Shown piece by piece: positions 59,135 to 60,802 of a DNA stretch of 64,000 nucleotides. This DNA is from Patescibacteria group bacterium (GTDB lineage Bacteria; Patescibacteriota; Patescibacteriia; JBDRGY01), in assembly GCA_043817315.1 (NCBI GenBank), contig JBDRGY010000001.1, positions 154,550 to 218,549 of the forward strand. Direction: 5' to 3'. Position 1 is the first letter of the stretch. The number at the start of each line of letters is the position of its first letter. The notes below the pieces were generated by a model. That model had not been told where the DNA came from and made no database searches. It saw nothing but the letters and a program-made list of their open reading frames with translations. The translations under genes were made by a program, and so were the position numbers.

Positions 59135-60802
59135 ATGGCAATACGTAAAAAAATTTGGTTAATTTTTTCAGGAATCATCATTCTGGCGGTTTTGGCCGGA
59201 ATTGTTGACTTTCCTTCAGGACCAGATATAAGAATCGGTAATTATTTTAAAGAACTAAAAGTCCATCTAGGTTTAGATTTACAAGGTGGGGCTCATCTTC
59301 TATATACCGCCGATACTTCAGGCGTTGAGACTACTGAGGCGGGATCGGCTTTAGATGGCGTTCGTGACGTTATTGAAAGAAGAGTCAATGCCATTGGTGT
59401 TTCCGAGCCGATAGTCCAGACTTCCAAAGTAGGGGAGGAGTGGCGACTTATTGTTCAGTTGCCGGGAGTCAGCGATATTAACCAAGCCATTAATACAATT
59501 GGCGAAACTCCATTCTTGGAATTTCGTGAAGAAGCTGCTCCGGAAGAATTAACAGAAGATCAGATAACAGAAGCTAAAGCTTACAATTTGCTGGCCAAAG
59601 GAAGGGCTGATGAAGTTTTAACTCAAACTTTAGTCGAAGGATCCGATTTTTCCCAGCTAGCTATAGATAATAGTGAAGGTCCCTCTGGTCCACAAGGCGG
59701 TGAGCTGGGATTTTTTAGCCGAGGACAAATGGTTCTCGAGTTCGAGGATGCAGTTTTCAACGCGGAGCTTGGCAAGGTTATTCCCGAAGTTGTTCAGACA
59801 GAATTTGGTTATCACATTATTAAAGTGAATGAAGAACAGACCGGCGAAGATGGCCTAGTGCAGCGCAGTGCCCAACATATTTTAATAAACACCCAACCGG
59901 AAGATGTAGTACCTTCTCAAGGTTTTACCCCAACAGAATTATCTGGTAAACAGTTAAAAACCGCTCGAGTACAGTTTGATCCCAATACCAATGAACCGGA
60001 AGTGTCATTAGAATTTGATGATGAAGGAAGAGAGCTATTCGGTTTGATAACCGAAAGAAACGTCGGTAAATTAGTGGCCATATACTTGGATGGTGCTCCT
60101 ATTAGTATTCCCCGGGTCAATGAAGCGATAAAAGAGGGGAAAGCGGTGATTACCGGCAGCTTTACTTTAGACGAGGCTAAAACTTTAGCTCGTCGCTTGA
60201 ACGCTGGTGCTTTACCGGTACCCATTACTTTAATTAATCAGCAAAATATAGGACCGACCTTGGGCCGGGAATCTATTGAACGCAGTTTTTTTGCCGGACT
60301 GATTGGTTTGATACTAGTAGCCCTGTTTATGATATTCTACTATCGTTTTCCCGGAGTTTTGGCCTGTTTTGCTTTGTTAATATATGCCTTAGTGGCCTTG
60401 GCCTTATTTAAATTAATTCCGGTTACTTTAACCTTGGCCGGCGTGGCCGGGTTCATCTTATCTATCGGTATGGCTGTTGATGCCAATGTATTGATTTTCG
60501 AAAGAATCAGGGAGGAGTTACGTACCGGCAAATCTTTAAAATCATCAGTTGAAGACGGATTCAAGAGGGCCTGGCTTTCAATTCGAGATTCAAACATGTC
60601 TAGTATTATCACCTGTATTATCCTGGCCTGGTTTGGCACCAGCCTGATAAAGGGTTTCGCCATTACTTTAGGCATTGGAATTTTGATTAGTATGTTTTCT
60701 GCCATTATTGTTACCAGGAATTTCTTAAGACTGTCAGCTGGAGATTGGCTGGAAAAAAGAATTGGCTGGATGGGTGTTAGAAAAGTATCAAAGGAAGAAT
60801 AA
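59135..60802 (+). CDS. secD: Protein translocase subunit SecD with an inserted parvulin-type PPIase domain in the periplasmic P1 head
   Basis: Canonical SecD blocks: [32 protein letters not shown]-like, LDGAPISIP, and a C-terminal 6-TM domain. Residues about 141-232 (SDFSQLA...[50 protein letters not shown]) closely match PpiC. Confidence 0.85.
   Translation: [555 protein letters not shown]

Follow-up and report, generated by a model that had tools for sequence, protein, structure and literature searches.

An apparently circularly permuted parvulin-type domain inserted in the P1 head of a patescibacterial SecD

The translocation gene secD of a Patescibacteria group bacterium (assembly GCA_043817315.1) lies in a 64-kb stretch of contig JBDRGY010000001.1, which is referred to here as the window (the whole 64,000 nucleotides analysed), and its product carries a parvulin-type peptidyl-prolyl isomerase (PPIase) domain within the P1 domain. 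The main features of the locus, numbered from the first letter of the window, are given below, with transmembrane helices abbreviated as TM.

59135..60802, + strand: secD, 555 residues plus stop codon, an uninterrupted open reading frame (ORF) recognised by TIGR01129, with the parvulin insert inside
59138..59209, + strand: TM1, residues 2-25, a helix in the AlphaFold model and in agreement with standard SecD topology
59357..59533, + strand: N-terminal part of P1, residues 75-133, SecD_1st (PF21760), 60.7 bits, ending in the strand LEFRE
59534..59920, + strand: whole insert, residues 134-262, made up of a linker, the apparently permuted parvulin domain with its SAQHILI strand, and a second linker; no match in Thermus SecDF
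59555..59842, + strand: core of the parvulin (helix 1 to strand 4), residues 141-236, by Pfam Rotamase_3/Rotamase and Foldseek
59858..59890, + strand: strand read as a relocated beta1, residues 242-252 (11 residues), with the His248 codon at 59876-59878
59924..60220, + strand: remaining P1 head, residues 264-362; SecDF_P1_head (PF22599) matches residues 267-362 at 99.1 bits, profile positions 19-114
60227..60739, + strand: TM2-TM6, residues 365-535, including Asp449; SecD_SecF_C (PF02355) matches residues 365-532 at 60.4 bits
60805..61695, + strand: secF, 296 residues, starting 2 nucleotides after secD; TIGR00966, 279.5 bits

The product of 59135-60802 is a bona fide full SecD. The SecD equivalog model of NCBIfam, TIGR01129, spans residues 45-530 with 402.6 bits (cutoff 244.4), and the layout of the family, with TM1, a large P1 domain composed of base and head, and five C-terminal TM helices, is recovered by Pfam, by the structural model and by Foldseek. 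With TM1 at residues 2-25, the P1 domain comes to lie on the extracytoplasmic side. Patescibacteria, whose cells have small genomes and probably no outer membrane, are counted among the monoderms, and for that reason the term “periplasmic” is doubtful here and “extracytoplasmic” is safer. The protein is most likely a working SecD, partnered by the adjacent SecF, and its motor is probably intact and functional, since Asp449, which aligns with Asp340 of Thermus SecDF, the essential TM4 aspartate of proton conduction, is invariant in the 120 best homologues (57-100% identity; NCBI, JGI, ENA and Logan). The canonical SecDF proteins of Thermus (3aqp/5yhf) and Deinococcus (5xan) share with it the TM core, the P1 base and head and the essential TM4 aspartate (phmmer, E 1.2e-80). 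In a sequence search of the PDB, residues 40-132 correspond to residues 30-117 of Thermus 3aqp and residues 256-534 to residues 147-425, and where Thermus SecDF has 29 residues (118-146), the patescibacterial protein has an insert of about 125.

The first-pass annotation, made from the sequence alone, had described this insert as a parvulin-type domain resembling Escherichia coli PpiC and had located it at 59555-59830 (residues 141-232). The location of the parvulin stands, but these coordinates cover only helix 1 to strand 4 of an insert that extends from 59534 to 59920. Rotamase_3 (PF13616) matches residues 152-234 at 75.6 bits (E 5.8e-21; cutoff 22.5; profile positions 34-115 of 116) and Rotamase (PF00639) matches residues 154-232 at 63.6 bits (cutoff 21.7; profile positions 18-96 of 97). 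The PDB sequence search aligns PpiC (1jns) to residues 159-231 (E 4.9e-11), which bears out the proposed resemblance, as well as PrsA (6xd8) to the insert (E 2.7e-13) and SurA to residues 135-276 (E 6e-9). Both the SecD and the parvulin profiles score far above what chance would give. In NCBIfam, the models for PpiC and PrsA also match the insert, the PrsA and SurA model matches being limited to the parvulin part and far under cutoff (52.5 bits vs 361). A Pfam scan of the protein returns only SecD, MMPL/ACR and Rotamase families, with no SurA_N or NC chaperone domain, and a six-frame search of the window with an HMM (hidden Markov model) of the family finds no parvulin gene besides the secD insert.

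Structure prediction gives the same picture. The whole protein, modelled with AlphaFold2 from a 120-sequence alignment, has a mean predicted local distance difference test score (pLDDT) of 85.4, with values of 85-94 for the insert and 74-81 for both linkers, and the insert modelled alone reaches a pLDDT of 93.2 and a predicted template modelling score (pTM) of 0.85 with the same elements. After the SecD strand 128-133, these elements are helices 141-165 and 172-179, strand 190-194, helix 201-208, a short strand near 215-221 and strands 225-236 and 242-252, with the strands of the head following from residue 264 on. The whole model matches SecDF structures in Foldseek (E 2e-25), and superposition of the Thermus P1 domain (3aqo) gives a target-normalised TM-score of 0.70 over 322 columns, with the insert looped out. 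The insert matches the PPIase domain of Staphylococcus aureus PrsA (2jzv) over 84 columns, with a root-mean-square deviation of 1.6 Å and 37% identity, and it also resembles Bacillus anthracis PrsA (6xd8), Pin1 and Ess1 in fold, these matches spanning 84-87 columns; the four-stranded sheet and four helices of the parvulin fold are present in the model. Because P1 superposes with the insert looped out and the insert alone matches PrsA and Pin1 PPIase domains, the parvulin is, in the models, a discrete lobe set in a loop where the P1 head begins, a possibility that had been raised in the first-pass annotation.

Fusions of this kind can be produced by a frameshift, a mis-assembly or a chimeric contig, in this case one that joins a parvulin gene to secD, and the window does come from a metagenome-assembled genome (MAG), where such errors happen. 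No support was found for this explanation. The SecD sequence stays in frame across both sides of the insert, the guanine-cytosine (GC) content of the insert (0.43-0.46) equals that of the remainder of secD and is uniform over the junctions, and an identical protein, annotated as SecD, is present on a 321-kb contig of an NCBI Patescibacteria MAG. The architecture recurs in hundreds of assemblies that are independent of one another (NCBI, JGI, ENA and Logan), so that an artefact is rejected and its probability is virtually nil.

The order of the secondary structure elements distinguishes the domain from canonical parvulins. The canonical order is beta1-alpha1-3-beta2-alpha4-beta3-beta4, and here no strand is found ahead of helix 1 and positions 1-17 of the Rotamase profile are unmatched. 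The strand that follows beta4, QRSAQHILI, bears the canonical xxHILV signature together with the first catalytic histidine, His248, and residues 242-252 form a hairpin with strand 4 in both the whole-protein model and the model of the insert alone. Strand 190-194 would pair only with the relocated strand, since it is an edge strand whose sole canonical neighbour is beta1, a pairing deduced from topology and not from coordinates. The trailing strand was also placed ahead of helix 1 in silico, with two scrambled strands and one reversed strand as controls. The construct in native order scores 68.0 bits with Rotamase (coverage 18-96) and 80.8 bits with Rotamase_3, and the de-permuted one 75.4 bits (coverage 1-96) and 89.8 bits, a gain of 7-9 bits, whereas the controls remain at 67.2-67.7 bits with Rotamase (coverage 18-96) and show no gain with Rotamase_3. 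De-permutation of three other homologues adds 6.6-7.5 bits and extends the coverage to 1-97. Because beta1 follows beta4 and the de-permuted sequence fills the whole profile, sequence and models support a circular permutant, with beta1 relocated behind beta4, over a canonical member of the family.

The stretch SAQHILINT had been taken in the first-pass annotation for a degenerate second HILI strand, and it could also have been the remnant of a second parvulin. For this protein both interpretations are rejected by the conservation of His248, by the models and by the de-permutation test, according to which the strand is the only beta1 of the domain. No paper on a circularly permuted parvulin was found, in a literature search that was thin on subscription journals. 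A permuted parvulin with tandem, and possibly nested, variants is of interest for the study of domain evolution.

The SecD-parvulin fusion is widespread in Patescibacteria and not rare. SecD and Rotamase Pfam domains are found together in 120/120 of the best homologues. In a wider search, in which the P1 region was compared with 1.84 billion cluster representatives (50% identity), 224 clusters were obtained at E <1e-30, and the domains of the best 150 of these were mapped with family-built HMMs: 87 representatives are SecDs that carry a single parvulin unit or two, 58 are SecDs without any and 5 are free parvulin arrays. Among the species-representative genomes of GTDB, all 80 of the 80 best loci encode the fusion, with one unit in 45, two in 34 and three in 1. 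Proteins with one unit have about 550-590 residues, those with two tandem units 650-700 and those with larger inserts 775-830, and SecD-SecF fusion proteins with parvulins, which occur in Peregrinibacteria, Gracilibacteria and Peribacterales, have 877-1119. The credibly named matches are Patescibacteria only, with Kerfeld-, Falkow-, Buchanan-, Magasanik-, Komeili-, Kuenen-, Uhr- and Moranbacteria and the “Parcubacteria group” in the record titles. The architecture had not been recognised as a described one in the first-pass annotation, and no paper describing it was found in the same search; in public databases, however, it is common and its Pfam domains are machine-annotated, under the labels “SecD” or “SecF” only.

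Around 30 of the 80 loci bear the title “uncultured Gammaproteobacteria”, and some others Bathyarchaeia, Binatia, Bdellovibrionales or Lysobacteraceae. The SecD encoded there shares 50-56% identity with the query region, so that mislabelling or contamination of the MAGs is the probable explanation. Seven SecDF fusions of about 1013 residues, the length of their parvulin-bearing kin, have no precomputed Pfam Rotamase match, and the inserts of such Peregrinibacteria/Gracilibacteria-type proteins may be degenerate. The forms of 775-830 residues contain a further segment of about 200 residues before the parvulin, which is mostly unassigned, with weak or degenerate parvulin matches only. The closest free-standing relatives, five proteins, consist of 3-5 tandem parvulin units and, where named, belong to Candidatus Eremiobacterota and are annotated as PrsA/SurA-like; a unit cut out of register from an array of this type would be permuted.

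Both the P1 site and the insert itself accept additional sequence. Between SecD_1st and the head, four homologues, at least one of them from Patescibacteria, have inserts of 70-140 residues without a Pfam match, which makes the site a hot spot for lineage-specific additions, and the loop of the beta4-beta1' hairpin holds an extra 40-70 residues of low-complexity or helical sequence in seven homologues. A site and a hairpin that tolerate unrelated segments in this way would suit an insert that is mainly structural, a spacer or docking lobe directed towards the wall, the S-layer, the pilus machinery or SecYEG that does not act as a chaperone. Such an insert would not be expected to keep its catalytic tetrad and proline pocket over lineages at 36-50% identity, as is observed, and no partner for docking is known, which makes this explanation highly improbable.

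In the relatives with two units, of which 34 SecDs from GTDB loci were examined along with homologues P0122-P0131, the units differ. Unit 1 has a degenerate pocket that has lost the Met and Phe, and the equivalent of His157 is His in only 4/34; in unit 2, which is intact, this His is present in 34/34, and Met, Phe and Thr are conserved. The strand between the units carries His in all 34, and the trailing strand in 14/34. In three such proteins the intact unit matches Pfam Rotamase from end to end (1-97), and because of this full-length match the intact unit can be read as canonical, with the middle strand as its beta1. A trailing His is seen in 4/4 cases in which beta4 of unit 1 has a His, vs 13/62 otherwise, a count uncorrected for phylogeny. 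These patterns hint at a canonical parvulin nested in the beta4-beta1' hairpin of a degenerate permuted parvulin, itself located inside the P1 head.

The active site of the insert was compared with Pin1 and PrsA across the 120 homologues. The codons within the parvulin core are the following.

59678..59680, + strand: Gly182, at the position of Pin1 Cys113 and the PrsA Asp; Asp in 104/120, Gly in 16/120
59798..59800, + strand: Thr222, at the position of Pin1 Ser154; Thr in 96/120, Ser in 24/120
59813..59815, + strand: His227, at the position of Pin1 His157, in strand 4 (FGYHIIKV); His in 120/120

His248, the equivalent of Pin1 His59, is His in 116/120, and the proline pocket formed by Leu191, Met199 and Phe203 (Pin1 Leu122, Met130 and Phe134) is present here and conserved among the homologues. 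The glycine is typical of a subclade composed of the query and 15 close relatives, which share the motif S-E-G-P/S-S with an invariant Glu181 and keep all other catalytic residues. Glu181-Gly182 (59675-59680), within the SEGPS motif, may represent a shifted catalytic carboxylate. Judging from these residues, the family may plausibly be catalytic; for the query protein this is uncertain.

This bears on whether the domain acts on prolyl bonds or merely holds chains. In the main rival to a tethered foldase or holdase, the parvulin would be a non-catalytic holdase that enlarges the capture surface of P1, similarly to the parvulin domains of PpiD and SurA P1, and prolyl isomerisation would be irrelevant. 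Gly182 would fit such a binding module, as would the retention of unit 1 in two-unit relatives despite the loss of its His157 equivalent and Met/Phe pocket, the Peregrinibacteria SecDF proteins of unchanged length that no longer match Pfam Rotamase, and the PpiD parvulin domain, whose role has been questioned (PMC9643414). However, single-unit proteins, like unit 2 of the tandem forms, hardly vary at the two His, the Thr/Ser and the Leu/Met/Phe pocket, which is the pattern expected of a maintained active site, and even the Gly182 subclade retains its other catalytic residues and Glu181. On this balance, a purely non-catalytic module is considered rather unlikely.

The reading favoured here, with a probability of roughly 0.7, is that the insert acts as a tethered foldase or holdase of the PrsA/PpiD type carried by the proton-driven head of P1. 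A parvulin-type PPIase domain would have been acquired in a loop where the extracytoplasmic P1-head subdomain begins; the domain's own polypeptide would run in through the long helix 1, on to strand 4 and back through the hairpin, with QRSAQHILI replacing the N-terminal strand 1. The P1 head, which captures precursors, has an amphiphilic cavity that crosslinks to them, and its swinging takes it through the Super-F, F and I forms; a coupling has been proposed between proton flow through the TM domain and the transitions of the periplasmic region, although the driver of the head swing itself is unclear (PMC5974789). The head would swing under proton flow and grip the emerging chain, and the parvulin would therefore ride on it beside the exit of SecYEG. 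There it would most likely bind unfolded, newly exported chains, received from, or held jointly with, the P1 head, and speed up their prolyl isomerisation, as a covalently tethered counterpart of the lipoprotein PrsA, of membrane-anchored PpiD or of the PrsA-like dome of Mycoplasma. Substrate binding, catalysis and coupling to the movement of the head are what we infer from this arrangement, and the same applies to the foldase function and the link to exported pilins and glycoproteins put forward in the first-pass annotation.

Several points weigh against this reading. Glycine occupies the catalytic Cys/Asp position in the query and its 15 close relatives, and one unit of the two-unit proteins is clearly without a pocket. 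Some translocon-associated parvulin domains, such as those of PpiD and SurA P1, are catalytically inactive. The insert is also not indispensable, because some Patescibacteria, for instance Azambacteria, have a SecD without it. A bolder form of the proposal, in which the swing of P1 would cycle the parvulin mechanically and SecDF would be a proton-powered extracytoplasmic foldase that captures, isomerises and releases chains in an ATP-free compartment, with triple nesting in the two-unit forms, is decidedly unlikely.

Among known systems, PrsA of Bacillus subtilis and S. aureus is comparable in being a parvulin PPIase held at the outer side of the membrane of a monoderm cell, where it folds Sec-exported proteins, and it is also the best single-domain match to the insert in fold and sequence (2jzv, 6xd8). 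PrsA is, however, a separate lipoprotein of canonical strand order whose parvulin lies within an N/C chaperone domain, whereas in the fusion SecD itself is the anchor, the parvulin is apparently permuted and there is no SurA_N-type match. The PpiD-YfgM system of E. coli and Vibrio differs in that PpiD, which has a TM anchor and chaperone domains of its own, associates non-covalently and reportedly has an inactive parvulin, while in the fusion the link to SecD is covalent and the active-site residues are largely conserved. PpiD touches SecD's periplasmic domain and cooperates with SecDF (PMC9643414). In Mycoplasma pneumoniae, SecD is a crosslinking partner of the parvulin lipoprotein Mpn444, and a PrsA-like dome stands over SecYEG-SecDF (bioRxiv 10.1101/2024.09.05.611430, 10.1101/2025.04.25.650208).

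This dome (Mdp444/436/489 with SecYEG-SecDF) likewise belongs to a genome-reduced cell of wall-less or monoderm type, with PrsA-like parvulins over the translocon and SecDF as an integral part, but it is built from separate trimeric lipoproteins that form a chamber, and neither a SecD insertion nor a permutation has been described for it. SurA, with its inactive P1 and active P2, pairs a degenerate and an intact unit as the two-unit SecD relatives do, and is otherwise a soluble, periplasmic protein with an N-terminal chaperone core that delivers outer-membrane proteins. The SecD-parvulin may work like PrsA, PpiD or the Mycoplasma dome, yet the absence of a SurA_N/NC chaperone domain means that it is not a member of the PrsA, SurA or PpiD families.

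It is still a matter of debate how folding factors receive chains from the Sec channel, and contacts between SecD and parvulins, for PpiD of E. coli and Vibrio and in the Mycoplasma dome, have been seen only recently. A covalent fusion conserved in a large radiation provides independent evolutionary “Rosetta-stone” evidence that SecDF and a parvulin operate as one unit at the exit. As a single polypeptide, it would be a simpler system in which to study the coupling of head movement to folding catalysis, and it suggests how cells with small genomes could stop a foldase from diffusing away.

The secD gene is located downstream of a cell-wall cluster (murD, ftsW, murG, murC and murB) and secA. 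The upstream context, described for 42150-56644 of the window, includes the following genes.

42150-43928: PMT-family glycosyltransferase, followed by a family-4 glycosyltransferase, murD, ftsW, murG, murC, murB and secA
52240..55002, + strand: secA, SecA_DEAD, 414 bits, upstream of secD
55145-56644: L,D-transpeptidase (YkuD) fused to FG-GAP repeats, between secA and secD

A GC-rich segment of 2.3 kb (56650-58950; 50-57% GC vs about 40-44% around it) also separates secA from secD and contains six small ORFs on the minus strand.

56938-57282, - strand: small ORF
57295-57588, - strand: small ORF
57516-57731, - strand: small ORF
57862-58386, - strand: small ORF
58383-58661, - strand: small ORF
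58627-59022, - strand: small ORF, with a weak PHROG match of unknown function (E 0.003)

None of the six has a Pfam match, the PHROG match is the only one, and two are predicted, by eye, to be membrane proteins. Repeats flanking the segment amount to short, chance-level matches. In one relative (locus L078) secA directly precedes secD, and because of this the YkuD gene and the GC-rich segment seem to be insertions in the present locus; the segment may have been acquired recently, as an island. No RNA genes are returned when the window is scanned with Rfam and for tRNAs. A gene with sigma-70 region 4 and HARE-HTH domains lies 3' of secF both in the window (61804-62922) and in L078 (5145-6131), and the secA-secD-secF-regulator neighbourhood is conserved between the two.

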